The notes beneath the pieces are model-generated. The model did not search any database. It had not been told where the DNA came from and worked only from the letters and a program-made list of their open reading frames with translations. Below, piece by piece: positions 15,746-35,745 of a stretch of 64,000 bases of DNA. Positions within the stretch are counted from its first letter, which is position 1; every line of letters starts with the position of its first letter. The position numbers were made by a program, and so were the translations under genes. This DNA comes from an uncultured Methanosarcinales archaeon (lineage in GTDB: Archaea > Nanobdellota > Nanobdellia > Woesearchaeales > GCA-2686295): the NCBI GenBank assembly GCA_964402995.1, contig CAYOEA010000009.1, positions 4,974-68,973 on the forward strand. Direction: 5' to 3'.

Positions 15746-15836
15746 GGGTTCAAACACTCAAAAACAAAGTTTTTGGTGTGACCAAAAATCCCAAATTTTT
15801 GTGCATCCCATTCGCGGCGCCTTTTTTATTTCTAAA
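15746..15836 (+). pseudogene. Duplicated tRNA-Ser 3' fragment interrupted in the T-loop by a 51-nt palindromic element
   Basis: GGGTTCAAA (15746-15754) + insert 15755-15805 + TCCCATTCGCGGCGCCTTTTTTATTTCTAAA; 15805-15836 is identical to 15691-15722. Confidence 0.75.
15755..15805. repeat. Double-hairpin palindromic element, copy A
   Basis: CACTC-AAAAAC/GTTTTT-GGTGTGACC-AAAAAT/ATTTTT-GTGCA. Confidence 0.75.
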
Positions 15837-15889
15837 CAAACAAACGACTAAAAGAAGTATTCGCAACCAACGAGCGAAATCGTTAATTA

Positions 15890-15913
15890 CATTCGCGACA
15901 CTTTTTTATTTCT
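15890..15913 (+). repeat. Third, degenerate copy of the tRNA-Ser 3' end
   Basis: CATTCGCGACACTTTTTTATTTCT versus CATTCGCGGCGCCTTTTTTATTTCT. Confidence 0.65.
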
Positions 15914-15951
15914 CCAAAACATTTTAAAACAATCCAACTATTTATTTTCTT

Positions 15952-16401
15952 ATGAATGTCAACATCAAACAAAGACCCGAATTCAAAGACTTAGGAATCC
16001 CTCAATACGAAACAGAAGGTTCTGCTGCTGTTGATTTAAGAGCTGCTATTGAAAACACTAAAACTCTTAATCCTGGCGAATCCATGCTTATTCCAACTGG
16101 TTTATTCATAGAAATTCCTAAAGGCTACATGCTTCACATCACTCCTAGAAGTGGTCTTGCATTAAAAAAATCAATTAGCATTGTTAATTCTCCCGGAATC
16201 ATTGATTCTGATTATCGAGGAGAAATTGGAATTATTCTAATCAATCATGGTGACGATGCATTTTCTATAAAAAGAGGAGACCGTATCGCACAAGCATCTT
16301 TTGTTGCTTTTGGAAAAGCAACTTTCAATAAAGTTGATGAACTATCTAACCTTAACACTCAAAGAGGAGAAGGTGGTTTTGGAAGTACAGGCACAAAATA
16401 A
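15952..16401 (+). CDS. dut: dUTP diphosphatase (trimeric)
   Basis: SAAVDL, PRSGLA, GIIDSDYRGE, RIAQ, RGEGGFGSTG. Confidence 0.98.
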   Translation: MNVNIKQRPEFKDLGIPQYETEGSAAVDLRAAIENTKTLNPGESMLIPTGLFIEIPKGYMLHITPRSGLALKKSISIVNSPGIIDSDYRGEIGIILINHGDDAFSIKRGDRIAQASFVAFGKATFNKVDELSNLNTQRGEGGFGSTGTK

Positions 16402-16455
16402 TTCTAAGCTAAATTATAGAAATTTATTTAAAAGCATTAAGTCATCATTATTGTT

Positions 16456-17184
16456 ATGGAGACTTCAAAGGCTATCAGAACCAGACGATCTGTTCGTAAA
16501 TTCACTCAACAACCTGTTGAGTTTGATAAACTTGCAAAGATCATAGAGGCTGGAACTTTTGCTCCTAGCGCAGGAAATATTCAAAACTGGCGTTTTATTC
16601 TTGTAACTGATAAACCTGTTCTTCGCGAACTTTATAATCACTGTATGAATCAAGAGGTCGTCTACAATGCTCAAGCAGCAATTATTGTTGTTGGAGTTAT
16701 AGATAAGGCTGAGCGTCTTTATGGTCTTAGAGGTAAAAGATTGTATACTGTTCAAAACTGCGCTTGCGCTGTTGAAAACATGCTTCTTACAGCCCATGAC
16801 CAAGGTCTTGGTGCTTGTTGGATTGGTGCATTTAATGAAGATAAACTTAGCGTAATTTTTAGTATTCCTGATAAAGCTCGCCCTCAAGCAATTATTGCTC
16901 TTGGTTATCCTGCTGAAAAACCAAATTTTGAAAGAAAGGATCTAGAATCAGTCACTTATTTTAACCAATATGGTATGAAAATTAAAAACTTCCATTTACT
17001 TATTCGTGATTATAGTGTCGAATGGGAGCGTCAAAGTGAGAAAATTGAAGTTGAAAGCGATAAAGGTGTCGGACTTCTCAGAAAGCATTTAATGAATCTT
17101 CATGAAAAATTAAAAAATCATCCTAAAACTAAATCTCTTTTCAAGCAAAGAGGAGCTAAAGAACTTAAAGTTGAAAAGAAATAA
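16456..17184 (+). CDS. Nitroreductase family protein
   Basis: RRSVRKF, APSAGNIQNW, AVENMLLTAHDQGLGACWIG. Confidence 0.93.
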   Translation: METSKAIRTRRSVRKFTQQPVEFDKLAKIIEAGTFAPSAGNIQNWRFILVTDKPVLRELYNHCMNQEVVYNAQAAIIVVGVIDKAERLYGLRGKRLYTVQNCACAVENMLLTAHDQGLGACWIGAFNEDKLSVIFSIPDKARPQAIIALGYPAEKPNFERKDLESVTYFNQYGMKIKNFHLLIRDYSVEWERQSEKIEVESDKGVGLLRKHLMNLHEKLKNHPKTKSLFKQRGAKELKVEKK

Positions 17185-17244
17185 TTCTTATTATTCGACT
17201 CCAGTCCAACAATCTTTTTAAAACAATTCAGTATCTTATTTAGA

Positions 17245-19119
17245 ATGGATTTTAATGAAATGCTTTTTCCTCATGATAAGGTTAGAGATGTTCAAGATAA
17301 ACTTATTATTCGAGTTAATGAAGCTGTGACTAGTGGAAAAAATTTAATTGTTCATGCACCAACTGGCCTTGGTAAAACAGCAGCATCTTTAGCACCTGTA
17401 TTAAAATACGCAATTGATAATGACAAAACTGTTTTCTTTTTAACTTCTCGGCACACTCAACACCAAATTGTCCTTGATACTTTAAGAGATATTAGAAATA
17501 AACACGATAAAGATATCCTTGGAGTTAGTATCATTGGTAAAAAAGGTCTTTGTCTGCAACCAGGAGTCTCAAAACTTTATACTTCAGAATTTAATGATTA
17601 TTGTAAAGCTATGAGAGAAGATAAAAAATGTGAGTACTTTGAAAAATTTAAGAAAGGAGAATCTTTGTCTGTTGAAAGTAAAGCAGCTCTTGAGCAATTA
17701 AAAAAAATAGGTCTTGTTGATACTAAAGAAACAATGTCTGTTAGTGAAATGTATGGTATTTGTCCTTATGAACTTGCTATGGCTACATCTAAAAAAGCAA
17801 AAGTTATTATTGGAGATTATTACTATGTTTTTCATCCTGATGTTTCAAAATTATTCTTTGCTAAGATTGATACTGCATTTGAAGATTCAATCATCATAGT
17901 TGATGAAGCACACAATCTGCCTTCTAGATTAAAAGATTTATTTACTGTCAGACTTACAAACATTATGCTTAAAAGAGCTCTTACTGAAGCTAAAAAATAC
18001 AAGTATGATTCTATTCAACCAATATTAAAAGACATGGTGGATATCATTTCTGAACTTGCAGATTTTAGAGATCAAGAGCAATATATTAAGAAAGAAACTT
18101 TCATGGATAGAATTAATCTTATCACTGATTATCATCAACTTATGAATGATTTATCTTTTATTGGCGATGCTGTCAGAGAGGAACAAAAACAATCTTACAT
18201 AGGTTCAGTTGCTAGTTTTCTTGAAGCTTGGCTTGGTAGAGATGCGGGCTTTACTAGAATTATTTCTAAACAAGATGGTTCTCAAGAAAGAATTATAATG
18301 CTTAGTTATCGTTGTCTTGATCCTAGTCTTTCAACAAAAGATGTTATTAGAAATGCTCACAGTACAATCTTAATGTCTGGAACGCTATCACCTACAAGCA
18401 TGTATCGTGAACTTTTAGGTTTTAATGAATCCAATACTATTGAAGATACTTTTCCAAGTCCATTCCCTGAAGAAAATAGATTAAATATTATTCTTCCTAA
18501 AACATCCACTAAATATGAACTTAGAAATGCAGCACAATATAAGGAAATTGGTAAAATTTTATCTCAAATAGCAAATAAAGTTCCTGGAAATACTGCGATT
18601 TTCTTCCCTAGTTATTATCTAAGAGATCTTATTGCAAATGAATTTAACGAGCTATGTACAAAAACAACATTCACAGAGCTTCCCAATATGACCAAAGATG
18701 ATAAAACAGAACTTATAACTAAATTTAAAGAATACAGTAAAACAGGTGCTGTTCTTTTAGGTGCAGTTTCTGGAAGTTTTGGAGAAGGTATTGATTTACC
18801 TGGCGATCTTCTTAAATGCGTTGTTATTGTTGGCCTTCCTTTGTCCAAACCAGATCTTGAACAAAAGGCACTTATTGATTATTACGATAAACTTTTCAAA
18901 AAAGGTTGGGATTATGGTTATTTATTTCCGGCTTTCAATAAAACTCTTCAATCTGCAGGTCGTTGCATTCGTAGCGAAAATGATAAAGGAGTAATTGTTT
19001 TTCTTGATGAACGTTATACATGGTCAAATTATCGTAAATGTTTCCCTAATACTTGGAACATGAGAACTACTATGTTATATGAACGTATGATTGATGAATT
19101 TTTTATTAAAAATAAATAA
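17245..19119 (+). CDS. xpd: XPD/Rad3-family Fe-S DNA helicase
   Basis: APTGLGKT, four Fe-S cysteines (CLQ...YCK...CEY...CPY), VDEAHN, SGTL, GSFGEGID, QSAGRCIR. Confidence 0.93.
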   Translation: MDFNEMLFPHDKVRDVQDKLIIRVNEAVTSGKNLIVHAPTGLGKTAASLAPVLKYAIDNDKTVFFLTSRHTQHQIVLDTLRDIRNKHDKDILGVSIIGKKGLCLQPGVSKLYTSEFNDYCKAMREDKKCEYFEKFKKGESLSVESKAALEQLKKIGLVDTKETMSVSEMYGICPYELAMATSKKAKVIIGDYYYVFHPDVSKLFFAKIDTAFEDSIIIVDEAHNLPSRLKDLFTVRLTNIMLKRALTEAKKYKYDSIQPILKDMVDIISELADFRDQEQYIKKETFMDRINLITDYHQLMNDLSFIGDAVREEQKQSYIGSVASFLEAWLGRDAGFTRIISKQDGSQERIIMLSYRCLDPSLSTKDVIRNAHSTILMSGTLSPTSMYRELLGFNESNTIEDTFPSPFPEENRLNIILPKTSTKYELRNAAQYKEIGKILSQIANKVPGNTAIFFPSYYLRDLIANEFNELCTKTTFTELPNMTKDDKTELITKFKEYSKTGAVLLGAVSGSFGEGIDLPGDLLKCVVIVGLPLSKPDLEQKALIDYYDKLFKKGWDYGYLFPAFNKTLQSAGRCIRSENDKGVIVFLDERYTWSNYRKCFPNTWNMRTTMLYERMIDEFFIKNK

Positions 19120-19208
19120 ACTTATTATTATTTGAATAAAAATACGATTACAAAATATTTTCTTTGTTATTAATTATTTTCTTAAAAAACTAAAAATAGA
19201 CTAAACTA

Positions 19209-19226
19209 GTATACTAATTAGTATAC
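19209..19226. promoter_or_regulatory. Perfect 18-bp palindrome, candidate operator
   Basis: GTATACTAATTAGTATAC upstream of ORF 19305. Confidence 0.45.
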
Positions 19227-19304
19227 GAAACGAAATATTTATATACTAGTACCCCCATTAAAGATATAAATTAGTTGAAAAACACTAAGCAAAGGTAAAA
19301 AAAA

Positions 19305-19724
19305 ATGGTCATACTATTCGATCAATTCAATCTTCCAGACAGCATTTACGAAATTATATTTGCTACATCACAACAAGTTATGGTTGCAAAGCTTCTTGTT
19401 GAACAGATGAAATTAAAAGAAGGTGAAATAGGAAAAACAGAAATGTCCATGTTTGCAACAGCACTTCATGATGGAACAATCTTAGAAGCTGAAAGTGAAA
19501 GCCAATTCGTAGGTAAAACTAAAGTCAAACTATCATATAACAAAAGACAATTTTACGATAGAATCCTAACTCCTATGAAAACAATGGGATTAATCGATTA
19601 CGATTTATACAAGAAAACTTACAAATTAAGCGAAAAATTCAACAAAAACATGATGAGAATCGGATTAACTTGGTTACAAGAACTTCGAAAACCACCAAGA
19701 CCATTCGTACTAAAAACAAAATGA
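19305..19724 (+). CDS. Hypothetical protein, possible winged-helix DNA-binding
   Basis: 139-aa ORF; C-terminal helix then GLIDYD...YKL resembles a wing. Confidence 0.6.
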   Translation: MVILFDQFNLPDSIYEIIFATSQQVMVAKLLVEQMKLKEGEIGKTEMSMFATALHDGTILEAESESQFVGKTKVKLSYNKRQFYDRILTPMKTMGLIDYDLYKKTYKLSEKFNKNMMRIGLTWLQELRKPPRPFVLKTK

Positions 19725-19742
19725 ACAAAAAATAACAATCAC

Positions 19743-19797
19743 GAGCTCCCTACAGCCTCTTCTCTAACCACCCTCCCCTCAATTCTGTTGGGAGCTC
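19743..19797. other. GC-rich stem-loop with a polypyrimidine loop
   Basis: GAGCTCCC-T-ACAG / CTGT-T-GGGAGCTC stem enclosing a 29-nt C/T-rich loop. Confidence 0.5.
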
Positions 19798-19929
19798 AAA
19801 ACCCCTTTTTTAACTGGCGATAAACAAACAACAAACACAACAAATTAATTCTCAAAATTAAATTAAAGAAAGTATTCTTAAAAAAATTAGAAAAGAATTA
19901 TAAATAGGTCAAATAATTTATTAATTAAA

Positions 19930-20373
19930 ATGGAAGAATATGTTAAACTAGCAAAAAAACTTAATCTGCCTTCTTTTGAAGAAATGAATTCTTATTTTCA
20001 AATAGCAGATATCGAGGATAAAAACATTCTACATGAAGTTGTTAAAAAAATTCATGACCAAACAACTCACTTCACTAATATGCTTGAAGAAATCATTAAC
20101 CCAGAACATCTTAGAAGTTTAAATGAAGCAGGAATGTTTTCTGAAGAAGATAAAAAAATTATTCTTAGACTATATAGAAAACTTCAACATACAAACAGAC
20201 AAAAAGATCTTTTAGAAGTTGAATTTGAAGAAGAAGCATATATAAATTTCATTAATAATTCTTTTAACGAATACAAACTAATTAAAGATGATCTTAAAGG
20301 AATCATAAAAAAACTAAGAGATTGTTGGAATAAAAATAAAAATACTAAATTAGAATTAGGATACTTTGGTTAA
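19930..20373 (+). CDS. Hypothetical protein
   Basis: 147-aa ORF ending LGYFG; no motif recognised. Confidence 0.65.
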   Translation: MEEYVKLAKKLNLPSFEEMNSYFQIADIEDKNILHEVVKKIHDQTTHFTNMLEEIINPEHLRSLNEAGMFSEEDKKIILRLYRKLQHTNRQKDLLEVEFEEEAYINFINNSFNEYKLIKDDLKGIIKKLRDCWNKNKNTKLELGYFG

Positions 20374-20438
20374 ATATAAACAAAACAAAAAAAACAATAA
20401 CAAAAAACAACTAACAAAAAACTTGGAGGAAAATAAAC

Positions 20439-21071
20439 ATGAATTTCATTATTTTCGGACCACAAGCATCTGGTAAAGGAACACAAGCAATTAGAATTGC
20501 AGAAAAGTTTGGACTTATACACATCTCAACTGGGAAAATTTTTAGAGCCAACATAGCTAACCAAACAGAAATTGGACTAAAAATAAAAGCAATCATTAAC
20601 AAAGGAGAATTAGTTCCTGACAGTTTAACAAATAAGATTGTTCAAAACAGATTAGAAGAAGAAGATTGTAAATCTGGATTTGTTCTTGATGGTTTTCCAA
20701 GAAATAGAAATCAAGCAGATTTTTTAGATACACTGCATCATAAATTCAAATCAGTTGTTGATTTAGAAGTTCCTAAGACTACCATTATTAATAGAATTTC
20801 AACTAGAAGAGTTTGTATTAATTGTAAACAAAACTATAACACAATCTCATTAAAACCAAAAGTTGAAGGTATCTGCGATAAATGTGACGGAGAACTTATT
20901 CAAAGAAATGATGATCAGCCAGAAGCAATTGAAAACAGACTTAAAATCTATGAAGAACAAACTAAGCCATTATTAGATTTTTACGAAAAAAAAGGAATTC
21001 TACTTCCAATCGATGGAGATCAAGGAATTGATGAAGTCTTTGAAGAAATTATTAAGAAATTAGAATCTTAA
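20439..21071 (+). CDS. adk: Adenylate kinase (bacterial type, Zn-binding LID)
   Basis: GPQASGKGTQ, HISTG, GELVPD, LDGFPR, CxxC...CxxC LID, RNDD. Confidence 0.97.
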   Translation: MNFIIFGPQASGKGTQAIRIAEKFGLIHISTGKIFRANIANQTEIGLKIKAIINKGELVPDSLTNKIVQNRLEEEDCKSGFVLDGFPRNRNQADFLDTLHHKFKSVVDLEVPKTTIINRISTRRVCINCKQNYNTISLKPKVEGICDKCDGELIQRNDDQPEAIENRLKIYEEQTKPLLDFYEKKGILLPIDGDQGIDEVFEEIIKKLES

Positions 21072-22005
21072 TAACATTAGTCGCATAAGATCCTTTTGGT
21101 AAATTAAAAGTGAATTTTATTTTTTTCTTTTCTTTATTTAAGTCATCGTCTTCAAGCAAACTAACAGATAAATCTTTAATATTTACATATAGTTTTCTCA
21201 TATCACCTTCACAACTTAAATCAGGTAAAGCTTGAATAATAAAATCTCTTTGAACAATTTTATCCTTACCTAAAATTTCATCAACAATTGATTCAATCTT
21301 CTCATCTTCAAATTCAGTTCCAAAACCAACTAAAGGAACATCATAATTCACTTCAGAATCAAGCAAGGCAATAGTTTCATTAAACACTTTACTTTGATAT
21401 GAATGAATAAACAATAAAAGTATTTTTCTTGGAACTTTTCTTAAAGCACCAACATAATCATTAATTTTATCTTTCAAATAAGTTTTAACTTTTTCTTCAT
21501 ACCAACCATCAGATTCCAGTATTAATTCAACTGCTTTCTTAAAGTCCTTTCGTAGCATTGCAAGACCAATCGCCACATTATTATTTGAGAATCTTTGTTT
21601 ATCATAAGAGTTCTTTACTCGTTTATTTAAATTTACAACAACTGACGAATCTAAATCACGAACCACTATTTCAAATGAATTCGAAGCTAAATCACCAAGA
21701 TTCATTGGCCGCCCACACATCCCAATAAATTCTAATTCAATGTCTTTTAATTTAAGAGATTTAACTCGTTCTTTTGAAACATCACTTATTGAAATATGCT
21801 GATAAGTAATAGCTACTTTATCTTTAATTCCCGCATAACCTATTTGTTTTCTATCAACATGAAGATGATCTGCAATAGCTTGAATAGCACGCTCAGTAGT
21901 ATAACTAGTTTTCTTCATTAAATAAATCGCATGTCTTCCGCCACCAATATTAACACCTATATTCTCTCGAACAATAAAATCTTCAGGTATTTGTTTTAGT
22001 TTCAT
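21052..22005 (-). CDS. truD: tRNA pseudouridine(13) synthase TruD
   Basis: PEDFIVRE, YAGIKDKVAITYQ, QRFS, FNLPKGSYAT. Confidence 0.93.
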   Translation of the reverse strand: MKLKQIPEDFIVRENIGVNIGGGRHAIYLMKKTSYTTERAIQAIADHLHVDRKQIGYAGIKDKVAITYQHISISDVSKERVKSLKLKDIELEFIGMCGRPMNLGDLASNSFEIVVRDLDSSVVVNLNKRVKNSYDKQRFSNNNVAIGLAMLRKDFKKAVELILESDGWYEEKVKTYLKDKINDYVGALRKVPRKILLLFIHSYQSKVFNETIALLDSEVNYDVPLVGFGTEFEDEKIESIVDEILGKDKIVQRDFIIQALPDLSCEGDMRKLYVNIKDLSVSLLEDDDLNKEKKKIKFTFNLPKGSYATNVIKILIS

Positions 22006-22052
22006 AAACTATTAGAAGAAGAAGCTGATTTTAATACTTTATTAAAAGAGAA

Positions 22053-22088
22053 AAACAAACAAACAAACAAACAAAGAAAGAAAGAAAG
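22053..22088. repeat. Compound microsatellite (AAAC)5(AAAG)4
   Basis: Read directly from the sequence, intergenic. Confidence 0.85.
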
Positions 22089-22130
22089 AAAAAAAGAAAG
22101 ATCAAAAAAAACTTTAATTAAATAACTAAT

Positions 22131-24617
22131 CTAACCATTAATTTTATATCTTCCATGTTTTTTTAAAATTTTATCAGGTACTGTAAAATTAAACATATTC
22201 CAACAATTCAATAATTCTTCAGGATTGCCTATTTCATGTAACTTTATACTAGGAATTAATCTATCATAAGCTTTGTAAAGATTTAGAGGTCTACCACCAT
22301 TTAAGCTCATATTATTCAATAACATTCCTAAAGCACGACTTGTTTCAGCAAGGGATATATTTCCGGGAATAATTCCTAAAAATGCTTCTTGATTATTATC
22401 AAGTCTTCTAAATCCTTTTTGCGAATTCATTATATGATATATTCTTTCTGAATCAAAATATGCGAGTGATTTTAAATATTTATTTTCAGTAAATTCATAA
22501 GTCAAAACTCTATTATTATTTCCCTTATCAATATAAATTCCTAACATTTCATTTACAGATTTATCATAAAATTCAGACAGAACAATGATAGATGAAACAA
22601 TTTTGTTAGCATGAATTATTCTTGGTTCCAATCCTCCAAATGAATTAGTATGATAAGCTCCTTTTTTAGATGGATTTGAAGTTATTGGTGAGACTTTCGG
22701 ATGAAGATGATTAACTATTGATTTATCTTCACTTATCATAGTTGACGAATTATCTTGATTAAGTTTTGCTTTCATTTCTTTTTTCGAGAAAACTTTCACC
22801 CCAAAAGACTCTAAATATTTGTCATTTGTTACTCTCGTAACTTTTGGTTTTAAACCTGCAAAATGATCATTTATTGTTGAAACTATATTAACAAATCTTG
22901 AATTAGAATATATAGATAAAGAATTAAGTCCTTTTGACAATTTTAGAACTTCAGCTGAGAAATTTATTGGTTCTAAAAGTAGAAAATTCTCATCATTAAA
23001 ATCAATTCGATTAAATTCTCCATTAACATTTTCTTCTATTGAGAAAATTTTTGTTTTTTCAAAATATTTTTTATGAGTTCCTTTATAATGTATTTTTAGT
23101 TTTCCAGCCTGATCTTTTTGTATAACTAATAAACCGTTTTGTAAATTTTTTGAGGTGGCAGAACTTTGAAAACTAACTACTACTTCATCACTAGTTGCTA
23201 AAGGATATTTTATCCAATCATATTCAAGCCCTGTTTCTTGAACTAATAATTCAATTGTATTATCAATTAATTCATGATCTATTTCAGTATTAAAAATAAA
23301 AGGTAAACAATTTATCTTCTGTAATTGTTTATTTACAAACGAATAATCTTTTAATCCGAAAAAACCTAAAGTTCTTTCCCTGGTTGAAGCTACAGCTTTA
23401 GAAATAGAAGTTTCATTTAAATAATCATAAATGATTTCATGCAGAGGAAACATTCTTGGAATATTATCTGCAAGCATTCTAATTGTAATGGGAATAGAGA
23501 TAGGTTTCTCAACAGACATATTTTCTATTGGACTAATACCATTGAATAAAATATCATTTTGATCAAATCTTACTAGAACATCATTTTTATATGTACTTGA
23601 TAAAATTACTTGTTCTACGCCTACTTTATCTTTATATTCACCTTTATAACTCTGTTCAATTCTTAATCCATTTGAATCTAAAGACTTGAAAGCTAAAACT
23701 CCAACTAATTTATTTTTTGGTCCTCTTTTAGAATTAATATTATCATTTCTAGATTTAAAAAATTTTGCAACACCAGATTGATACCCTGAAGAAAAATACT
23801 TAATAGTATCAAATGCTAATTCTGATTCAGTTATGAATTTTGTTATTACTTCTTTAACTTTATCAACATTTACAGTAATATCAGTTATCTCAAAATCTAA
23901 TGATTTATCTTTTAACATGATTTGATCCAGCTTACGACTTTGTTTATTAGCATATGAAAAATCTATGGTTTCTTTCTTTTGTTGTAATTCTGCAGCGCCT
24001 TTTTCATAAAGTTCTAAAAAATCAATTTTTTTTGTTGAGGTATTCTCCTTAGCTCCAACTATTTCATCTGAAATTGATGAACCTTCATTATCTGAAGCAA
24101 ATTCAAAATTCATTTTTGAAGGTATAATTCTTGAACGATTTCTCTTTGTATTCTTTACAGTTTGTGCAACATCTTTTACAGTTAAGTTTTCTGGTTCATC
24201 AGATTCTTCATTTTGTATAGACTTTAATGGTTTAAAATATGCTCCAAGACCTAAACTTTTTGATTCAGATTCATTTAATTTAACATATTTCGTATTTGAT
24301 TCATCCCACATAAAATTAAATAGTTTCTTTTCTGGTTGGTTTTCTTTTACTAATCCTCTGTAAGAAATAAATTCTAAGAAATCAAATTCATCAAACTTCA
24401 AAACAGAAGTTCCAATTACATTATTATTTGCAACGAAGGTTAAATAATATATTTGATCTTCAATTTCGGGAGAATATAATTTAGATTTAATATCTTCATT
24501 AAAGCCAATACTATTTTTTAATTCATTTATTACTAAGACCAATTCATCAATTTTTGGATGAAATGATGGTTCAAGATGACTATTATTCAATCTTGTTATA
24601 AGGTCTTTACTTTGCAT
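22131..24617 (-). CDS. Large hypothetical protein
   Basis: 828-aa open frame just downstream of tRNA-Arg; no motif recognised. Confidence 0.65.
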   Translation of the reverse strand: MQSKDLITRLNNSHLEPSFHPKIDELVLVINELKNSIGFNEDIKSKLYSPEIEDQIYYLTFVANNNVIGTSVLKFDEFDFLEFISYRGLVKENQPEKKLFNFMWDESNTKYVKLNESESKSLGLGAYFKPLKSIQNEESDEPENLTVKDVAQTVKNTKRNRSRIIPSKMNFEFASDNEGSSISDEIVGAKENTSTKKIDFLELYEKGAAELQQKKETIDFSYANKQSRKLDQIMLKDKSLDFEITDITVNVDKVKEVITKFITESELAFDTIKYFSSGYQSGVAKFFKSRNDNINSKRGPKNKLVGVLAFKSLDSNGLRIEQSYKGEYKDKVGVEQVILSSTYKNDVLVRFDQNDILFNGISPIENMSVEKPISIPITIRMLADNIPRMFPLHEIIYDYLNETSISKAVASTRERTLGFFGLKDYSFVNKQLQKINCLPFIFNTEIDHELIDNTIELLVQETGLEYDWIKYPLATSDEVVVSFQSSATSKNLQNGLLVIQKDQAGKLKIHYKGTHKKYFEKTKIFSIEENVNGEFNRIDFNDENFLLLEPINFSAEVLKLSKGLNSLSIYSNSRFVNIVSTINDHFAGLKPKVTRVTNDKYLESFGVKVFSKKEMKAKLNQDNSSTMISEDKSIVNHLHPKVSPITSNPSKKGAYHTNSFGGLEPRIIHANKIVSSIIVLSEFYDKSVNEMLGIYIDKGNNNRVLTYEFTENKYLKSLAYFDSERIYHIMNSQKGFRRLDNNQEAFLGIIPGNISLAETSRALGMLLNNMSLNGGRPLNLYKAYDRLIPSIKLHEIGNPEELLNCWNMFNFTVPDKILKKHGRYKING

Positions 24618-26003: not shown

Positions 26004-26009
26004 ATACTA

Positions 26010-28323: not shown

Positions 28324-28458
28324 TTTTGTAAAAAAAACGTTAATTCTTATAAAAAGTTAATTGATTTACATGAGAAAAAGAATAAACTCACCTTAAAACT
28401 TAAAAAAAAGAGCAAAAAAATAATTAAAAAAATTAAAAGAAAAAAAAGATTAATTATA

Positions 28459-29802
28459 TTAAACTATTTTTCTTGCTTCAACGTAAAATCTTTTTTCATT
28501 TGCTTCACCCATAGAAAAAGTCTTTCTTGGTAAAGCTCCTTCAAGAATTACACTTTTAAAAAAACTATTTTTATCTATTGAATCTAAAAAGAATCCACAA
28601 TTACCAGTTTTTTGTCCAAGTTCACAAACTACATCAGTTCCATGCACATAATCAATTTCTTCCGCATTTCCTAAACTAACAAATTTATCTAAAAACTTTT
28701 GAAGCGTTCCATAAGTTAAATTTGAAGTTGGTTTATTGAAAGTAATTAATTTATAATTATTTAAATTAATAAAACCAAATATTTGCTTATCACCTGAATT
28801 CTCAACAGTTGTAATCATTTCTTCTTTTGAACACTCTTTAAACTCAAGAGTTTCACCAAATTCTTCTTTCAATGCGATTTCAAAATCTTTTTTCACATTA
28901 AATAATACTCTATGAATTGGTTCAAACTCCATTGCTTCAGAATGAATATTCATTAATTCAACTAAAGCAAATCTTGATGGATGATCCATACCTTTCTCAG
29001 ATTTTGTGCTTTCCCAAATTGTTTTTGCAGTTGCTAAAGAATGATTTCCATCTCCCATTGCAAATAATAATACATCTTCTTGACCATACTTATCTTTACA
29101 AACTACAGGATCAGCAAGTTTAGCAAGTTCAGTTAACATGTTATTTGAAGTTTCTAAATCAAGTCTATAACCTTTAACATGACCACCTTCCATCATTAAT
29201 TCAAAATCATATACTTTATCTAAATCTGATTTCAAACTCGTCAATGGTTCAATAACCTTCTTTTCTCTATCATCAATTAAAACCATTATATGAGGTAATT
29301 CAATTAAAGCATTTTTTCTAACTTCAACTCTAGGAGGTAACCTATCAACGATTGTTCCTTCAGTTGCTCTAATTAAACTTTTAGAATCAACACTAAAATC
29401 ATAATACTCTAAATCTAATGCTACAACTAATCCTTGTCTAGTTTTACCATTAATAGTTCTTTCAACATAAATTATTCCTTCTTCCTCACTCAAAAGTTTT
29501 TCTTTTGGTGCACTAGCAACTTCATTGCTCTGTGCTTCTAATAATTCTTGTTCTAAATACTCACTCATAGAATCATTTATGTTTTGTATTCTTTTTTCTT
29601 TATCCTCGTCTTTCAAATAAACTTCAGGATAAACTAATTTTAATGTTGAAGGTTCATCAGCTACTAATTCAGAAACACGTTTCCAATAGTCTGGTTCACT
29701 TGTATATTGATCACAAGCTACAACTGCCCATTTAGTCATGTCCACATTCTTGTTTGGTAAAAGAATTTTTGGTATTTTTACTCCTATGTTTTTAAAATCC
29801 AT
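28459..29802 (-). CDS. DUF1015 family protein carrying an in-frame palindromic insertion
   Basis: KWAVVACDQYTS, IRATEGT, ELPHIM.LIDD, MGDGNHSLATAK, EPIHRV, LPRKTFSMGEA. Confidence 0.88.
   Translation of the reverse strand: MDFKNIGVKIPKILLPNKNVDMTKWAVVACDQYTSEPDYWKRVSELVADEPSTLKLVYPEVYLKDEDKEKRIQNINDSMSEYLEQELLEAQSNEVASAPKEKLLSEEEGIIYVERTINGKTRQGLVVALDLEYYDFSVDSKSLIRATEGTIVDRLPPRVEVRKNALIELPHIMVLIDDREKKVIEPLTSLKSDLDKVYDFELMMEGGHVKGYRLDLETSNNMLTELAKLADPVVCKDKYGQEDVLLFAMGDGNHSLATAKTIWESTKSEKGMDHPSRFALVELMNIHSEAMEFEPIHRVLFNVKKDFEIALKEEFGETLEFKECSKEEMITTVENSGDKQIFGFINLNNYKLITFNKPTSNLTYGTLQKFLDKFVSLGNAEEIDYVHGTDVVCELGQKTGNCGFFLDSIDKNSFFKSVILEGALPRKTFSMGEANEKRFYVEARKIV
29487..29535. repeat. Double-hairpin palindromic element, copy C (inside DUF1015 CDS)
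   Basis: CACTC-AAAAG/CTTTT-GGTGCACT-AGCAA/TTGCT-CTGTGC; read on the minus strand as AQSNEVASAPKEKLLS. Confidence 0.75.
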
Positions 29803-29928
29803 AATATCACCTTTTAAGAAAATATTTTCTCAGAATTATTTATATGTTTATCGAATTAATTCAAAAAACTTGTTTATTTTAAAGAAAAAAAAGAAAAAGA
29901 AAAAAAATAATTTAAAGAGTTTATTGTT

Positions 29929-29977
29929 CACTCAAAAACTAAATGTTTTTGGTGCACCAACAATTAATTGTTGAGTG
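29929..29977. repeat. Double-hairpin palindromic element, copy B (overlaps ppdK stop)
   Basis: CACTC-AAAAAC/GTTTTT-GGTGCACC-AACAA/TTGTT-GAGTG. Confidence 0.75.
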
Positions 29978-32594
29978 TCTCTCTTACTGCTGCTTGTGCT
30001 GCTGCAAGTTTTGCAATTGGAACTCTAAATGGTGAGCAGCTTACATAGTTTAATCCTACTCTATGGCAAAATTCTACTGATGATGGCTCTCCGCCGTGTT
30101 CTCCACAGATTCCAAGTTTAATTCCAGGTCTTGCTTGCTGTCCTTTCTTTACAGCCATTTCTACTAATTGACCAACACCTGTTTGATCTAATACTTGGAA
30201 TGGATCTTTTTCTAAGATTCCTTTTTCTACGTATTCTGGAACGAATTTTCCTACATCGTCTCTTGAGAATCCCATAGTCATCTGTGTTAAATCATTTGTT
30301 CCAAAGCTAAAGAACTCTGCTTCTACTGCAACTGCATCTGCAACTAATGCTGCTCTTGGAACTTCAATCATAGTTCCAACCATGTATTTTACATCTGTTC
30401 CGTCTAGTATTCTATCAGCTGCTGCAACAATAATTGCTTTTTGATTTGTAAATTCTTCAACAGTACCAATTAAAGGAACCATAACTTCAGGTTTTACTGA
30501 AATTCCTTCTGCTGCAACTTCTTTTGCTGCTTCAAAGATTGCTTCTGCTTGCATTTCTGCAATTTCAGGATATGTAACTCCTAATCTACAACCTCTGTGA
30601 CCAAGCATTGGGTTTACTTCATGTAAGCTTTCGATTTTGTGTTTTAAATCTTCTATACTTACGCCAAGTTCACCTGCAATTTCTGCAATGTCTGTTTCAG
30701 CTGTTGGTAAGAATTCATGTAATGGAGGGTCTAACAATCTAATTGTGATTGGTTTTCCTTCCATGATTTTGAATAATGCTTTGAAGTCATCTTTTTGGAA
30801 AGGTTTAATTTTCAAAAGAGCTTTTTTTCGACCTTCTAAGTTTTCACTCATTATCATTTCTCTAACAGCTTTGATTCTATCACCTTCAAAGAACATATGC
30901 TCAGTTCTGCATAGACCAATTCCTTCTGCACCAAATTTGATTGCTTGCTGTGCGTCTCTTGGTGTTTCTGCATTTGTTCTAACTCCCATTCTTCGGAATT
31001 TATCAGCAATATCCATTAACTTTCCAAAGTTTCCTGTAAGTTCTGGATCAGTTGTTGGAATTTTTCCTGCGTAAACATCTCCGCTAGTTCCATCAAGTGT
31101 AATGTAATCTCCTTCAGTGAATTTTTCTCCACCTAGTTCTAATGATTTTGCTGCTTCTGAAATTCTTGCATCCCCTAAACCTGATACACAACATTTACCC
31201 ATTCCACGAGCTACAACTGCTGCATGTGAAGTCATTCCACCTTTTGCAGTTAGAATTCCTACTGCTGCGTCCATCCCAATTAAATCTTCTGGACTTGTAT
31301 CATTTCTTACCAAGATTACTTTTTCACCAGCTTGTTTTAATTCTACTGCTGATTCATTTGTAAATGCAATTTTTCCTACAGCTCCACCTGGTGATGCTGG
31401 AAGACCTTTTCCTAAAGATGTGTGTTTTTCTTTTGCAACATGATCAAGTTGTGGATGTAATAACTGATCAAGTTGATTTGGATCTACTCTCATTACAGCT
31501 TCTTTTTCTGTAATTAATCCTTCATCAACCATTTCTACAGCCATTCTTACTGCAGCTTCAGCTGTTCTTTTTCCATTTCTTGTTTGAAGCATATAAAGTG
31601 TTTTGTCTTGGATAGTAAATTCCATATCTTGCATATCTTTGTAGTGCAATTCTAATTTTTTATAGATTGCAACAAGCTCAGCATATGCTTGTGGCATAAC
31701 ACTTTCTAACTGTGAGATTGGTTGTGGAGTTCTAATTCCTGCAACAACGTCTTCTCCTTGTGCGTTCATTAAATATTCTCCATAGAAATAGTTTTCTCCT
31801 GTTGATGGATCTCTTGAGAAACATACTCCAGTTCCACTTGTTTCGCCCATATTTCCAAAGACCATTGCTTGAATATTTACAGCTGTTCCATCTAATCCTT
31901 TGATGTCATTCATTCTTCTGTAAACAATTGCACGATCATTGTTCCATGAACCAAATACTGCTTCTATTGACATAATTAATTGTTCTTTTACATCAATTGG
32001 AAACTCTCTTCCTGCATGTTCTTTGATAGTTTCTTTGTATTTTTCTACTACTTCTTTTAAGTCATCAGCTGATAAGTCAGTATCAAATTCAACGCCTTTT
32101 GTTTCTTTGATAGTTTCTAATACTTTTTCGAAATTAGCATGCTCTACACCCATCACTACATCTCCAAACATTTGAAGAAATCTTCTGTATGAGTCATAAG
32201 CAAATCTATCATTTCCTGATTTTGCTGCAAGACCTGCAACTACTTCATCATTTAATCCTAAATTTAGAATTGTATCCATCATTCCTGGCATAGATACTGC
32301 AGCTCCACTTCTTACTGATAATAATAACGGACTTTCACTATTTCCTAGCTTGCTTTCCATTTCTGATTCAAGCGTTACTAAGTGTTGATCGATTTCTGTT
32401 AATGCTGCTTCTGAAAGTTTTTTTCCTTCTGTATAAAATTCAGCACAAGTTGCAGTTGTTATTGTAAATCCTGGCGGTACTGGCACACCAATATTTGCCA
32501 TTTCTGCTAAGTTAGCTCCTTTGCCACCTAGAATGTTTTTCATACTCTTTTCGCCTTCAGTTCCTTTTTTACCGAAGTAATATACATGTTTCAT
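29964..32594 (-). CDS. ppdK: Pyruvate, phosphate dikinase
   Basis: GGKGANLAEM, SVRSGA..SMPGMMDT, GGMTSHAAVVARG, GLCRTEHMF, SFGTNDLTQ, GICGEHGG. Confidence 0.99.
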   Translation of the reverse strand: MKHVYYFGKKGTEGEKSMKNILGGKGANLAEMANIGVPVPPGFTITTATCAEFYTEGKKLSEAALTEIDQHLVTLESEMESKLGNSESPLLLSVRSGAAVSMPGMMDTILNLGLNDEVVAGLAAKSGNDRFAYDSYRRFLQMFGDVVMGVEHANFEKVLETIKETKGVEFDTDLSADDLKEVVEKYKETIKEHAGREFPIDVKEQLIMSIEAVFGSWNNDRAIVYRRMNDIKGLDGTAVNIQAMVFGNMGETSGTGVCFSRDPSTGENYFYGEYLMNAQGEDVVAGIRTPQPISQLESVMPQAYAELVAIYKKLELHYKDMQDMEFTIQDKTLYMLQTRNGKRTAEAAVRMAVEMVDEGLITEKEAVMRVDPNQLDQLLHPQLDHVAKEKHTSLGKGLPASPGGAVGKIAFTNESAVELKQAGEKVILVRNDTSPEDLIGMDAAVGILTAKGGMTSHAAVVARGMGKCCVSGLGDARISEAAKSLELGGEKFTEGDYITLDGTSGDVYAGKIPTTDPELTGNFGKLMDIADKFRRMGVRTNAETPRDAQQAIKFGAEGIGLCRTEHMFFEGDRIKAVREMIMSENLEGRKKALLKIKPFQKDDFKALFKIMEGKPITIRLLDPPLHEFLPTAETDIAEIAGELGVSIEDLKHKIESLHEVNPMLGHRGCRLGVTYPEIAEMQAEAIFEAAKEVAAEGISVKPEVMVPLIGTVEEFTNQKAIIVAAADRILDGTDVKYMVGTMIEVPRAALVADAVAVEAEFFSFGTNDLTQMTMGFSRDDVGKFVPEYVEKGILEKDPFQVLDQTGVGQLVEMAVKKGQQARPGIKLGICGEHGGEPSSVEFCHRVGLNYVSCSPFRVPIAKLAAAQAAVRETLNN

Positions 32595-32821
32595 TTTGTG
32601 TATTCCTCACTAGTTTTTTATTGAATATGATATAAGAATTAGTACTCTCTTACACCTATAAACTAACCTAAAATCAAGTTGTTTTTAAAGATATTTATTA
32701 TGTAGAATATATGTTAAAGAAAAAAATATTTTTTCAGCAGAATACAAGGAAAAACAAATAATCACTACTGGACGATGGTGAAAATATAAACATTTATAAA
32801 TAATTTCATATTAAAACTTGT

Positions 32822-33373
32822 ATGAAGAAAACTTTAGCAGGAATAATCTTAACCTGTCTAAGTGTCACGATGTTTTCACAGACTAATACAAGCATAAATA
32901 CCAACAAAATAGAATTAAAGGCATCTAACCATTTATACGACACTATAAGAGATGCCAATTCTTTTGAAGCTAAAACATTAGAAAATAACACTTATAAAAT
33001 AAAAGAAACAGAAAATGAATTCTTTATGAAATTGGATAGCACAGATAAACAATATTTAATGGACAAAATAGACGAAATAGACGAAGAAATACCTAAAACA
33101 GTGAATAACTATACAAGTATTTTATGTGATGTCTTAAACAAAAACAATAGAAGAAACCCAATCTCAATTAATGACTTAATAGATCAAAAAGATAATAATT
33201 ATGAACTAATATATGTATCCGTAAAAAAAGTTAAAAACATGAACATCTTTGTTTTTCAATATAGCATTAATGGAGAACAAAATAGAATTACTTACGCGGA
33301 ACGAGATGTAAAAATTGCAGATACATTAATTGAAGAGTTAAAAGAAATTAGAAATAAAAAAAAGAAATATTAA
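32822..33373 (+). CDS. Hypothetical secreted protein
   Basis: Signal-peptide-like N-terminus MKKTLAGIILTCLSVTMFSQ; very low GC. Confidence 0.6.
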   Translation: MKKTLAGIILTCLSVTMFSQTNTSINTNKIELKASNHLYDTIRDANSFEAKTLENNTYKIKETENEFFMKLDSTDKQYLMDKIDEIDEEIPKTVNNYTSILCDVLNKNNRRNPISINDLIDQKDNNYELIYVSVKKVKNMNIFVFQYSINGEQNRITYAERDVKIADTLIEELKEIRNKKKKY

Positions 33374-33384
33374 TTAAAAAAGTT

Positions 33385-33696
33385 TTAACCAGTATGATAA
33401 TAACCAGCCATACAAACACCGCCTCCAGTGCAAGTAGAAGAACAAGAACCTCCCGTCCAAGAACCACACGAACCAACTTTATATGCATAACCATCATCAT
33501 CAAATTCGAAACAACCACATGATAATGACTGAGTCGCAGGTGGTCTACTTGGTCTTTGACCAGCAATATTCTCATCATTTAAATCTATTGGCACTATTTT
33601 TGTCGCTGATTTACCACCAATTAATACAACTAGTGCAACAATTGCCACCATTGCTACAATTGCAATATAAACCATTGCATTATTATTTTCAGACAT
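33385..33696 (-). CDS. Small membrane-anchored/secreted 6-Cys protein, cassette 1
   Basis: Leader MSENNNAMVYIAIVAMVAIVALVV...NIAG, then a Gly/Ser-rich core with 6 Cys; AGGTGA SD. Confidence 0.8.
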   Translation of the reverse strand: MSENNNAMVYIAIVAMVAIVALVVLIGGKSATKIVPIDLNDENIAGQRPSRPPATQSLSCGCFEFDDDGYAYKVGSCGSWTGGSCSSTCTGGGVCMAGYYHTG

Positions 33697-33777
33697 TTTA
33701 TCACCTTTTAGTTTAATTATAAACTTAATAAGAAAAATAATCAGATTAATACTATTTAAATATTTCTACAACTCTAT
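33630..33777. repeat. Constant unit of the cassette array (leader + promoter), copy 1
   Basis: Near-identical to 34751-34899; more diverged copy at about 34166-34322. Confidence 0.85.
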
Positions 33778-33939
33778 ATCAACAAAATAATAATCAGAAT
33801 ACACCTATCACATAAATTTCTAACCCCAAAAAAAACTGTGTTTTAAAAATATTTATAGTATAGAATATATGTTAAAGAAAAATTATAAAATTAAAGAAAA
33901 AAAGAAAAAAATTCAAGATTTAAATTTGAGATTATATCT

Positions 33940-34239
33940 TTATTCCCAGTTAGCTGCTGCGCCAGCATTACATCTAGTTACACAACCTGAATCATATCCT
34001 GTACAACATCTTTCACATTCTGATGCTGGAGGAGCAGTACAACCAGAGCTATACATAGTATTACCGCCAGTAGATAATTTTCCTGAAGATGCAAAAGCTA
34101 ATCCTGCTTGATTTGCGTCATCCATGCTTAATACTTTTGTTGTTGAATTTCCACTAATAACAACTACTAGTGCTACTATTGCTACCATTGCTACAATTGC
34201 AATATAAACCATTGTATTATGATCATTATTTTCTACCAT
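33940..34239 (-). CDS. Small membrane-anchored/secreted 6-Cys protein, cassette 2
   Basis: Leader MVENNDHNTMVYIAIVAMVAIVALVV...NQAG; core with C-x7-C-x2-CC-x6-C-x3-C. Confidence 0.8.
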   Translation of the reverse strand: MVENNDHNTMVYIAIVAMVAIVALVVVISGNSTTKVLSMDDANQAGLAFASSGKLSTGGNTMYSSGCTAPPASECERCCTGYDSGCVTRCNAGAAANWE

Positions 34240-34389
34240 CTTATCACCTTTTAATTTAATTTTAACTTAATAATACCTCATATTTTAGATTAATACTATT
34301 TAAATATTTCTACAACTCTATCTTGACAAAAAAATAATCTTAATTTAAAAATCAAAGAAGAAATAAATAAAAAATTAAAAAAAAATTAA

Positions 34390-34818
34390 TTAGTAAATTG
34401 ATCCTGCTGCTGCCTTAGCCGAACACCCACTACCACCGGAATAACCAGAAGGAGGATTACATTCACACTGTCCACTACCTTCCTTTGAACAAGTACCAGT
34501 TACAGTTGAACCATCAGAATCTTTTGTAGCAGTACATGTTAACCAACACCAAGTACGAGCCGCATCAGCTTCATGCCAACCACTTGCACCAGGAAGACCA
34601 TATGATCCAAATGATTCTAAAGGATTAGATGCTTGAGTTGATCTTAAAAAAATTCTTGAACTTGCTAATCCTGCTGAATTTGCATCAACATCATTCACAA
34701 TAGGTTCTAAACTTACAACTTTTGTTGCTGAATTTCCATTAATAACTACTACTAGTGCAACAATTGCCACCATTGCTACAATTGCAATGTAAACCATTGC
34801 ATTATTATTTTCTACCAT
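34390..34818 (-). CDS. Small membrane-anchored/secreted 6-Cys protein, cassette 3
   Basis: Leader MVENNNAMVYIAIVAMVAIVALVV...NSAG; longer core with 6 Cys. Confidence 0.8.
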   Translation of the reverse strand: MVENNNAMVYIAIVAMVAIVALVVVINGNSATKVVSLEPIVNDVDANSAGLASSRIFLRSTQASNPLESFGSYGLPGASGWHEADAARTWCWLTCTATKDSDGSTVTGTCSKEGSGQCECNPPSGYSGGSGCSAKAAAGSIY

Positions 34819-34887
34819 TATATCACCTTTTAGTTTAATTATAAACTTAATAAGAAAAATAATCAGATTAAATCTATTTAAATATTT

Positions 34888-35658
34888 CTACAACTCTATC
34901 TCGACAGGACAATGATCAGAGCCTAATATTTCAGGCAATATTTTTGCAGATTTTAACTTTCCAATCATTTTCTGAGAGACTAAAAAATAATCTATTCGCC
35001 AGCCAACATTTCTGCTTCGAGCACCCATTCTATAACTCCACCATGAATATGCGTCTTCTTTGTCAGGGTAGAAATGTCTAAAACTATCAACAAGTCCAGC
35101 TTCTAAATGCTTAGTCATTCCTTCTCGTTCTCTATCTGAAAACCCAGGACTTCCAAGTTTAGTTGCAGTAGTCATATTTGGCTTTGAATTTTTCAAGTCA
35201 ATTTCTTTATGCGCAGCATTTAAGTCCCCGCATATTACAACTGGTTTTTTCTTATCTAAATCCATTATAAAGTTTCTAAACGCATTATCCCATTCGACTC
35301 TATAATCAATTCTTGCTAACATATCTTTTGAATTTGGAGTATAAACATTTACTAAAAAAAAGTCTTCATATTCTAAACTTATAACTCTACCTTCTTGATC
35401 GTGTTCTTCAATACCCATATCATAAATTACCGCGTAAGGTTCAACTTTTGAGAAAACTGCTGTGCCTGAATAACCCTTTTTTTCTGCACTATTCCAATAT
35501 TTATATGGATAGTCTAGCAGCATTAAATCTACTTGTTCAGGTCTGGCTTTTGTTTCTTGTAAACATAATACATCAGGTTTCTCTGAGTTTACAAATTCGT
35601 AGAAATTTTTCTTTATTATTGCTCTTATTCCATTTACATTCCAAGAAATTAGTTTCAT
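34888..35658 (-). CDS. xth: Exodeoxyribonuclease III / AP endonuclease
   Basis: SWNVNG, LCLQETK, GYSGTA, NVYTPN, CGDLN.AH, WRIDYF, SDHCPV. Confidence 0.97.
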   Translation of the reverse strand: MKLISWNVNGIRAIIKKNFYEFVNSEKPDVLCLQETKARPEQVDLMLLDYPYKYWNSAEKKGYSGTAVFSKVEPYAVIYDMGIEEHDQEGRVISLEYEDFFLVNVYTPNSKDMLARIDYRVEWDNAFRNFIMDLDKKKPVVICGDLNAAHKEIDLKNSKPNMTTATKLGSPGFSDREREGMTKHLEAGLVDSFRHFYPDKEDAYSWWSYRMGARSRNVGWRIDYFLVSQKMIGKLKSAKILPEILGSDHCPVEIEL

Positions 35659-35699
35659 AAATTCGCTCCTAAAAAATTATGTATGCCAAAAATATTCTT

Positions 35700-35745
35700 C
35701 ATTCAAAAGCAATACTTTTGATGCGCCAAAACGTTAGTTTTGTGC
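35700..35745. repeat. Double-hairpin palindromic element, copy D (intergenic, upstream of xth)
   Basis: CATTC-AAAAG/CTTTT-GATGCGCC-AAAAC/GTTTT-GTGC; CAT/ATG is a compensatory change of CAC/GTG. Confidence 0.7.

Follow-up and report, generated by a model that had tools for sequence, protein, structure and literature searches.

Are short palindromes that recur in an archaeal genome with differing letters and one common shape the traces of a mobile element, and what might move them? The question is raised by four double hairpins of about 50 nucleotides (nt) in a 64,000-nt stretch of DNA (the window), which corresponds to positions 4974-68973 of a metagenomic source contig of 74,741 nt (ena:ERZ27316330:k141_364600). 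The window is archaeal and DPANN-like with 30% guanine plus cytosine (GC). It encodes CDP-archaeol synthase, XPD, TruD, GatD/E, topoisomerase VI, Cdc48 and a PIN-ATPase-KH protein, and one of its proteins has its nearest named relatives in Micrarchaeota (about 55% identity). We consider the hairpins to be members of an insertion element family, widespread in Archaea, whose miniature (46-62 base pairs, bp) units are non-autonomous and moved in trans, a reading to which we assign a probability of roughly 60%. The existence of the family is virtually certain and its insertional mobility highly probable; the identity of the mover is the weakest part of the reading.

Four double hairpins and their insertion sites

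An earlier note on this DNA had described four double hairpins with a common frame and paired stems. All of them are present, including the compensated clamp changes of the fourth, and the ends of two (copies B and D) could be refined. The four copies lie on the plus strand and share the frame CA(C/T)TC-stem1-G(G/A)TG-C(A/G)C-stem2-G(T/C)G. Copy A (15755-15805, 51 nt) is located in the T-loop (position 59/60) of a duplicated 3' fragment of a tRNA-Ser gene, and the base helix (clamp) of its second hairpin is degenerate. Copy B (29487-29534 or 29488-29535, 48 nt, with a boundary ambiguity of 1 nt) lies inside a DUF1015 gene (28459-29802, minus strand), and copy C (29929-29977, 49 nt) extends across the stop codon (29964-29966) of a pyruvate phosphate dikinase gene (29964-32594, minus). 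Copy D (35700-35746, 47 nt) is intergenic, 16 nt downstream of the stop codon of an open reading frame (ORF; 35763-36401, minus) and upstream of an ExoIII-like gene (34888-35658, minus); its clamp changes are CAT/ATG and CGC/GCG. The neighbourhood of dUTPase and ExoIII genes had also suggested an operator of a uracil-repair regulon, an idea that was abandoned because insertions were demonstrated.

The insertion of copy A can be traced by comparison with an intact gene close by. The tRNA-Ser(GCU) gene (15583-15705, plus; Rfam tRNA match, 40.6 bits), which contains a 43-nt intron in its anticodon loop and was overlooked by ARAGORN, serves as the 'empty' reference. A second tRNA-Ser 3' end with its trailer (GGGTTCAAA...TCCCATTCGCGGCGCC TTTTTTATTTCTAAA; 15746-15839, plus), recognised by alignment with its duplicate, is the split target of copy A. 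Aligning the tRNA 3' end with this duplicate results in one 51-nt gap exactly at copy A, GGGTTCAA[A]^TCCCATTCGCGGCGCC, and in the downstream repeat GGGTTCAAA and TCCCATTCGCGGCGCC are parted by precisely the 51 nt of the element.

The location within a tRNA sequence allows a different interpretation at the RNA level, namely that the elements are bulge-helix-bulge introns or other spliced or processed RNA and harmless when removed. Position 59/60 of the T-loop is a known non-canonical tRNA intron position in Thermoproteales, the tRNA-Ser of this archaeal genome carries a canonical intron, and the element has the two-fold symmetry of a bulge-helix-bulge motif. However, on inspection the succession of a 3-nt bulge, a 4-bp helix and a 3-nt bulge cannot be drawn at the boundaries of copy A, and its host is a tRNA fragment that lacks the 5' half; the intron reading of this copy was rejected on both grounds. 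Rfam returned no gathering-score match for the window and, around copy A, nothing at E<=1 except tRNA. The copies in coding sequences (see below) share a frame and encode similar peptides, as is expected only if they are translated, and an RNA-level origin is hence very improbable.

The surroundings of copy A (15504-15920) contain further duplicated tRNA-Ser(GCU) ends. The 5' end (CTATGCCGCGGTCGCAT) is duplicated 70 nt upstream, and the 3' end with its trailer occurs twice more, intact but interrupted at 15746-15839 and degenerate at 15886-15920. These duplications may be integration scars or local duplications; a split or permuted tRNA is unsupported, as a second tRNA body is absent. An independent assembly of the same organism (Logan contig L002 of SRR8526173) starts right after copy A at window position 15807, and repeats such as the element and the repeated tRNA end appear to fragment assemblies. 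The elements can also mask tRNA-related features.

Copy B is in frame and contributes 16 amino acids, AQSNEVASAPKEKLLS, to the DUF1015 protein. The insert, which maps to 29488-29535, is missing from all nine aligned homologues (the nearest relatives are only 55-61% identical), and deletion of copy B in silico yields LLE-EEEG-IIYVER at the homologues' length. In the predicted structure, the insert falls into an unstructured low-confidence stretch (residues 88-108). As this model is poor overall (mean confidence score pLDDT 64.5, 10-row alignment), it gives weak support only.

Copy C provides the final codons of the dikinase (..TLNN*), thereby replacing the original last codons and stop. After its deletion in silico the C-terminus ..AAVREKQ* is regained, with a TAA two codons further. 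A relative with the same gene pair (L005) has a 42-nt spacer and a dikinase ending in ..AVLKEK*, and contains neither element B nor C. As judged from these comparisons, copies A, B and C are demonstrable insertions into pre-existing sequence.

On polymorphism between strains, all other same-organism contigs (L001-L004, L148-L151) are uninformative, being 100% identical to the window. A protein scan of GTDB genomes revealed no close relatives, and a further locus (L006) was dropped from the comparison, since it stems from an organism with 59% GC and lacks synteny. We joined the flanks of elements found elsewhere and searched them against the collected loci (numbered with L), which resulted in five pairs of filled and empty sites. 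The element at L204:1575-1627 (53 nt, clamp to clamp) is absent from L171, with the junction GGAAA^TTGAC, and that at L174:1059-1109 (52 nt) from L204, with the junction TTTTC^TACTT. Two pairs concern the gene for ribosomal protein uS3: 54 nt at L208:2027-2080 and L216:2813-2866 are missing in L245 (junction TTCTTCT^CTTC), and the 54 nt at L245:5514-5567, another site of the same gene, are missing in L208 (AAAGAAA^AGAAG). In the fifth pair, a 60-nt unit is present in L055, L116, L118 and L121 and absent from L041 (TCAA^TCCCAAAAA); these loci represent five paralogous composite repeats of one Woesearchaeota genome. The composite repeat of this genome (JAZDHV01) comprises about 260 nt with up to seven consecutive hairpins and sharp ends, occurs on at least five contigs (L041, L055, L116, L118 and L121), and looks like a larger miniature element with a nested double-hairpin unit.

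All five pairs exhibit exact clamp-to-clamp bounds with an ambiguity of at most 1 nt, so that the ends that the earlier note had hoped to define from empty sites run from hairpin base to hairpin base, and the presence/absence polymorphism that it had called for exists at orthologous as well as paralogous sites. A target-site duplication was found at none of the eight defined sites, i.e. the five pairs and copies A, B and C. The whole unit thus enters DNA from the first to the last clamp base without duplicating its target. The L041 site resembles the target of copy A (TTCAAA^TCCCA), and each is situated in the loop of a small hairpin (GGG..CCC). The upstream flank reads TTCT, TTCCT, TTGTT or TTCTT in five oriented cases (copies B, C and D, L208 and L245) and is A-rich in the wider family.

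Common anatomy, distribution and paired changes

Two neighbouring hairpin modules in mirror-image arrangement make up the element. Each module folds, is 22-30 nt long and comprises a 3-bp base helix, the clamp (usually C-N-C/G-N'-G), a single nucleotide bulged out on the outer strand, a C-G pair followed by a stem of A-tract and T-tract, and at its top a short variable part of stem and loop. Statistics of the shared features were drawn from 131 unique elements, whose lengths range from 46 to 62 nt with a mode of 50-54. The mirrored bulges are found on the 5' side of hairpin 1 in 84 and on the 3' side of hairpin 2 in 83 of them, CAC is the most frequent clamp, followed by CCC, CGC and others, and the flanks are enriched in AAA before and TTT after the element. 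As the frame has two-fold symmetry, the termini form an inverted repeat (CACTCAAAA..TTTTGAGTG). An unbiased search for repeats in the window missed the family because its loops and stems vary in length.

Could four such hairpins have been picked by chance from A+T-rich DNA, in which A-tract/T-tract hairpins are plentiful? The genome has 30% GC, and by a crude estimate of our own, it is not a very rare event that four copies share about 15 A/T-rich positions. The core pattern matches the window four times, always on the plus strand, compared with 0.07 matches in shuffled sequence, a test that is post hoc, as the pattern was taken from the copies themselves. Copies B, C and D fold better than 200 of 200 shuffles (z -3.5 to -4.6), and their two side-by-side hairpins surpass shuffles as RNA or DNA and on either strand; for copy A the margin over shuffles is small (z about -2). 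To break the circularity, a covariance model (R1) was trained on copies B, C and D only and run with filters off. Its top match outside the training set is copy A (33.8 bits, E=2e-6), whereas 16.7 kb of a related genome with 32% GC yielded nothing above 14 bits, and the reverse complement of the element matches R1 as well. Measured against the refuting condition of the earlier note, the matches of the model are well above what chance would give. A descriptor based on structure only (two clamped hairpins side by side, their 5' arm A-rich) retrieved five loci in the window, namely copies B, C and D, 52243-52294 and 57242-57322, compared with one match in 20 simulated windows (0.05 per window).

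The distribution provides an independent line of evidence. One genome per prokaryotic species (GTDB) was scanned with a pattern that specified hairpin 1 only, which returned at least 120 loci, at least 46 of them archaeal; a metagenome scan added 100 more. Among the unique matches listed, an adjacent clamped second hairpin accompanies 26 of 43 archaeal, but 0 of 74 bacterial ones (Fisher p=6e-15), and the rate at random positions of the archaeal loci is 0.6%. Further copies, which lack the seed pattern, were found in these loci by R1. The archaeal carriers among the matches listed belong to Nanoarchaeota/Nanoarchaeia, Woese-, Pace- and Aenigmatarchaeota, Methanobacterium, Methanobacteriaceae, genomes labelled Methanosarcinales, and Altiarchaeales, and one of the Aenigmatarchaeota genomes has 52% GC (L095), so that A+T richness does not account for the element. 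No Methanococcales genome is among the matches listed, and 21 pattern matches in viral contigs included no double hairpin. On the basis of these sequence matches, the family is common to several archaeal phyla and widespread in Archaea. The three datable insertions (A, B and C) moreover coincide exactly with the bounds of the element. The copy B homologues, the recovery of copy A by R1 and its alignment with the tRNA duplicate, the ratio of 26/43 to 0/74, and the filled/empty pairs refute a chance origin, whose residual probability we regard as practically negligible.

The hairpin potential is kept by paired changes. In 55 distinct sequences aligned to R1, 99.3% of the paired cells are complementary, and changes on both sides occur in 13 of 18 pairs; 102 cells are doubly changed, whereas shuffles give 18. 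In controls with the partner shifted by one to three columns, pairing falls to about 50% (37-60%). The middle clamp position switches between A-U, C-G and G-C almost without single-sided changes. The covariation that had been proposed from the four window copies is thereby corroborated in the larger set.

Paired changes could also result from an origin in place, in which palindromes arise by template switching or fold-back synthesis and the shared frame reflects a mechanistic bias. The arms of a palindrome can correct one another (quasi-palindrome mutagenesis), which would mimic covariation, the stems and loops of copies in one genome differ greatly, and neither on the source contig nor in the neighbourhoods of copies was a transposase found. 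Such an origin is nevertheless improbable, as conservation across phyla extends to the clamp, bulge, C-G pair and A-tract, none of which derives from the flanks, the ends of the unit are sharply defined, and the empty sites contain no half-palindrome. Moreover, an unrelated Nanoarchaeota genome (L007) contains an element with a frame nearly identical to that of copy D, at a site whose orthology is ruled out by the lack of shared neighbours.

Host genes, a possible mover and neighbouring features

The insertions are mostly located at the 3' ends of genes. According to the ORF table, seven copies lie between convergent, twelve between tandem and only three between divergent genes. Apart from the DUF1015 gene, complete in-frame elements were detected in those for Lhr helicase, a metallo-beta-lactamase-fold protein (Methanobacterium sp. 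ACI-7), the N-terminal region of FtsY, and uS3. Compared with solved structures, Lhr has about 24 and the lactamase-fold protein about 19 extra residues at the element sites. Five of the six examined host-protein sites have the element in the same orientation and frame, which results in the peptides ..GAPK(E/D)KLLSE or ..FSGHQKSxxxLSE. All of these intragenic copies have a length that is a multiple of 3 nt and are free of stop codons, which argues for translation rather than splicing and also against strong terminators. The uS3 proteins of related DPANN genomes contain independent element-derived insertions of 18 amino acids at two sites of the Lys/Glu-rich tail (L245:4811-5716; L208:2027-2080; L216:2813-2866).

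The preference for 3' ends might suggest that the hairpins are host-beneficial expression signals, either bidirectional terminators or stabilisers of mRNA 3' ends, which were kept and spread by selection. Many copies directly follow stop codons (in the window copies C and D and the hairpins at 57241-57324 and 52265-52294), and T4-T6 tracts, the archaeal termination signal, are present on each strand. Bacterial repetitive extragenic palindromes (REPs) are placed alike, with a preference for sites between convergent and tandem genes (PMC3733652). We nevertheless regard this explanation as unlikely. An efficient terminator would be intolerable within such essential or conserved genes as those for uS3, FtsY, Lhr and DUF1015, where complete in-frame elements exist, purifying selection on random insertions would also leave a 3'-end placement, and the precise presence and absence of whole units is left unexplained. 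A signalling role is, furthermore, compatible with the secondary domestication of a mobile element.

If the family is mobile, the element would be selfish DNA that is recognised by its shape as folded single-stranded DNA, of which both strands fold alike; we see an even chance for such recognition as single-stranded hairpins. Cutting and joining would be accomplished by an enzyme that is supplied in trans and not encoded beside the copies. The leading candidate would be a Y1/HUH enzyme similar to RAYT or IS200 TnpA, but the assignment to an HUH enzyme specifically is tentative and less likely than not, and a conserved archaeal host enzyme is an equally open option. A related proposal, which we regard as possible yet rather doubtful, holds that these are domain-wide 'dumbbell' elements of about 50 nt without a dedicated transposase. 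Their movement or copying would be the work of a conserved host enzyme of Archaea, one that recognises the bulged A-tract hairpin, and they would repeatedly write similar peptides (..GAPKxKLLSE, ..FSGHQKSxxxLSE) into universal proteins, for instance uS3 and FtsY. If true, the elements would be a source of recurrent, homoplastic insertions in phylogenetic marker proteins.

The earlier note had proposed a non-autonomous inserted element defined by structure. The insertions of A, B and C and the filled/empty pairs bear this out, and its statement that the window lacks a transposase holds for the entire 74.7-kb source contig, on which, as in the vicinity of copies elsewhere, searches revealed neither a transposase nor an integrase nor an HUH domain. 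None of about 140 copies was seen to have a Y1 gene nearby. The note had not recognised the genome as archaeal, nor copies A, B and C as datable insertions, nor the spread of the family over several archaeal phyla. Clustering of neighbours and Pfam searches for a linked gene gave only housekeeping, ABC transporter, ribosomal protein and nucleotidyltransferase/HEPN genes; the sole recurring neighbours, nucleotidyltransferase/HEPN pairs, apparently represent one orthologous locus.

Several observations weigh against a family of elements moved in trans. No mobilising enzyme was identified, so the mechanism is one that we infer, and the two hairpins are mirrored, whereas those at the ends of IS200/IS605 elements stand in direct orientation on one strand. 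A universal target motif was not found: AAA|..|TTT frames the element in most genomes, and the targets in the window are T-rich or pyrimidine-rich. The filled/empty pairs cannot separate insertion from precise excision, and the same-strand orientation of all four window copies has a 1-in-8 expectation by chance. The covariation count was made on an alignment fitted by the model, and templated correction between palindrome arms can generate paired changes without selection. Finally, copies within a genome differ strongly in stem and loop, which one would not usually see in miniature elements after recent transposition and which could reflect old copies or a different origin.

A family present in DPANN, Methanobacteria, genomes labelled Methanosarcinales, and Altiarchaeales would add a new component to the archaeal mobilome. 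The copies in uS3, FtsY, Lhr and other proteins show that short insertions in universal archaeal proteins can recur independently, which bears on gene annotation and on phylogenetic arguments based on insertions; the uS3 case is a warning against the use of short insertions as unique phylogenetic characters. The covariance model provides a concrete search image toward the enzyme that moves hairpin elements without target-site duplication.

Weaker relatives accompany the four copies in the window. Three adjacent A-tract hairpins (57241-57324) extend across the stop codon of the gene for topoisomerase VI subunit A (56152-57246, plus). The descriptor matches at 57242-57299 and 57268-57322, the DNA fold reaches z=-7.2, R1 gives just 15.7 bits, and we regard the array as a related, more divergent family member. 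The single hairpin ATGC-C-AGAAAA..TTTTCT-G-A-GCAT (52265-52294), located just past the stop codon of the ORF 50984-52228, has a weak R1 score (18.7 bits) and is a probable solo module. Upstream of the same gene, CCTC-C-AAAAT..ATTTT-GAGG with a small second hairpin (50932-50979, minus) spans the ribosome-binding site; R1 yields 25.9 bits (E=2e-4), and its membership in the family is doubtful. A clampless solo hairpin, C-AAAAATTA / TAATTTTT-G (15530-15552), in the 53 nt that separate the duplicated tRNA-Ser 5' ends is possibly a related remnant. The remaining 10.7 kb of the source contig outside the window contain no further strong copy, and the source genome, of which 75 kb are covered, thus provides four strong and two to three weak copies.

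Three other features of the window are worth recording. Up to about 42 kb the GC skew stays negative throughout, thereafter it is near zero or positive, and at the same place the genes switch from mostly minus to mostly plus strand; the region from about 42 to 49 kb is possibly a replication origin, a terminus or a switch of strand bias. An island of about 50% GC (50540-50710) within this 30% GC genome lies between two plus-strand genes. Its plus strand folds well (z=-2.5), an Rfam match is absent even at E<=1, and it is a candidate for an uncharacterised structured RNA. Positions 33385-34940 comprise three tandem paralogous units, each consisting of a small gene (with a hydrophobic N-terminus) and its own upstream region, with repeats of about 100-200 nt that are 80-89% identical; the segment 34390-34818 is without a Pfam match.

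Comparison with known palindromic elements

The earlier note had likened the hairpins to REP/REPIN and IS200/IS605-derived elements moved by HUH (Y1) enzymes, an attribution for which we found no support. Bacterial REP dimers (BIME/REPIN) resemble the archaeal elements in several respects: both are short imperfect palindromes in paired inverted arrangement, and some REP partners are only 1-5 bp apart (PMC3733652). The archaeal modules are, like REPs, palindromes able to form a stem-loop within the range of 20-40 nt, and they occur as inverted doublets. REP subfamilies have alternative complementary stem residues, REP termini can provide stop codons, intragenic dimers encode 20-30 amino acids, and the CGTC superfamily exists without a dedicated transposase (PMC3733652). 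REP families have been reported from Bacteria only, namely Proteobacteria, Cyanobacteria, Chloroflexi and the PVC group (PMC3733652). In contrast to the GTAG/CGTC tag of REPs (PMC3733652), the archaeal ends consist of CAC, CCC or CGC clamps, next to which a single outer bulge precedes C and an A-tract. The archaeal elements are A/T-rich and REPs G/C-rich, a RAYT gene was seen neither on the 74.7-kb contig nor near archaeal copies elsewhere, and one frame is common to several archaeal phyla.

The elements of the IS200/IS605 family, whose TnpA is a Y1 HUH enzyme, cause no target duplication, are recognised through hairpins that carry an extrahelical base, and are present in Archaea. The absence of a target duplication is common to both. 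However, cleavage in IS200/IS605 occurs away from the hairpin foot, whereas the archaeal element ends at the hairpin feet. IS200/IS605 elements insert 3' of a fixed tetra- or pentanucleotide, for which we found no equivalent in the archaeal elements, and neither TnpA nor TnpB was detected near archaeal copies or on the source contig. With classical MITEs (miniature transposable elements with inverted repeats) of the DDE type, the archaeal elements share a terminal inverted repeat but not the target duplication of 2-10 bp (0/8 sites). Integron attC sites have R/L boxes (RYYYAAC..GTTRRRY) in one hairpin and stand in arrays next to an integrase; the archaeal elements have two hairpins, lack the R-box consensus, are dispersed and have no integrase.

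The double-hairpin elements of chytrid and other fungal mitochondria (Allomyces) are dispersed units of tens of nucleotides whose mobility was inferred from presence and absence between relatives. We know of no mobilising enzyme for them. Their likeness to the archaeal elements, compared by description only, is one of shape, and they are organellar; the term for double-hairpin elements was found in the organelle literature only. In Methanocaldococcus jannaschii, the palindromic repeats MJRE1-3 of Suyama, Lathe and Bork (2005) are reportedly about 100 nt long and were described in one species; a few of them reportedly lie inside coding regions that stay unbroken. By this description they may differ from the present family. 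A published archaeal description of an element of the present kind was not found, the MJRE1-3 report being outside the comparison. A 2024 review of prokaryotic MITEs includes only a handful of archaeal ones, none of this kind (PMC10969869). The palindromic elements of Rickettsia (RPEs) likewise reside in frame in unrelated housekeeping proteins that are not destroyed, with inserted peptides alike across hosts (PMC10969869). RPEs, however, are about 100-150 bp long, restricted to Rickettsia and in part CGTC-tagged (PMC3733652), compared with archaeal units of about 50 bp with two hairpins.

The closest known counterparts are the head-to-head REP dimers or REPINs of Bacteria and the coding palindromes of Rickettsia and, by shape, the double-hairpin elements of fungal mitochondria. 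Because the double hairpins lack the REP tag, the IS200/IS605 end geometry and the target duplication that classical MITEs show, we file them as a new REP-like archaeal element outside every named family. REP-like miniature palindromes and 'coding palindromes' have so far been treated as bacterial, and the question of the mover is one that the archaeal elements share with the CGTC repeats of Bacteria and the hairpin elements of organelles.

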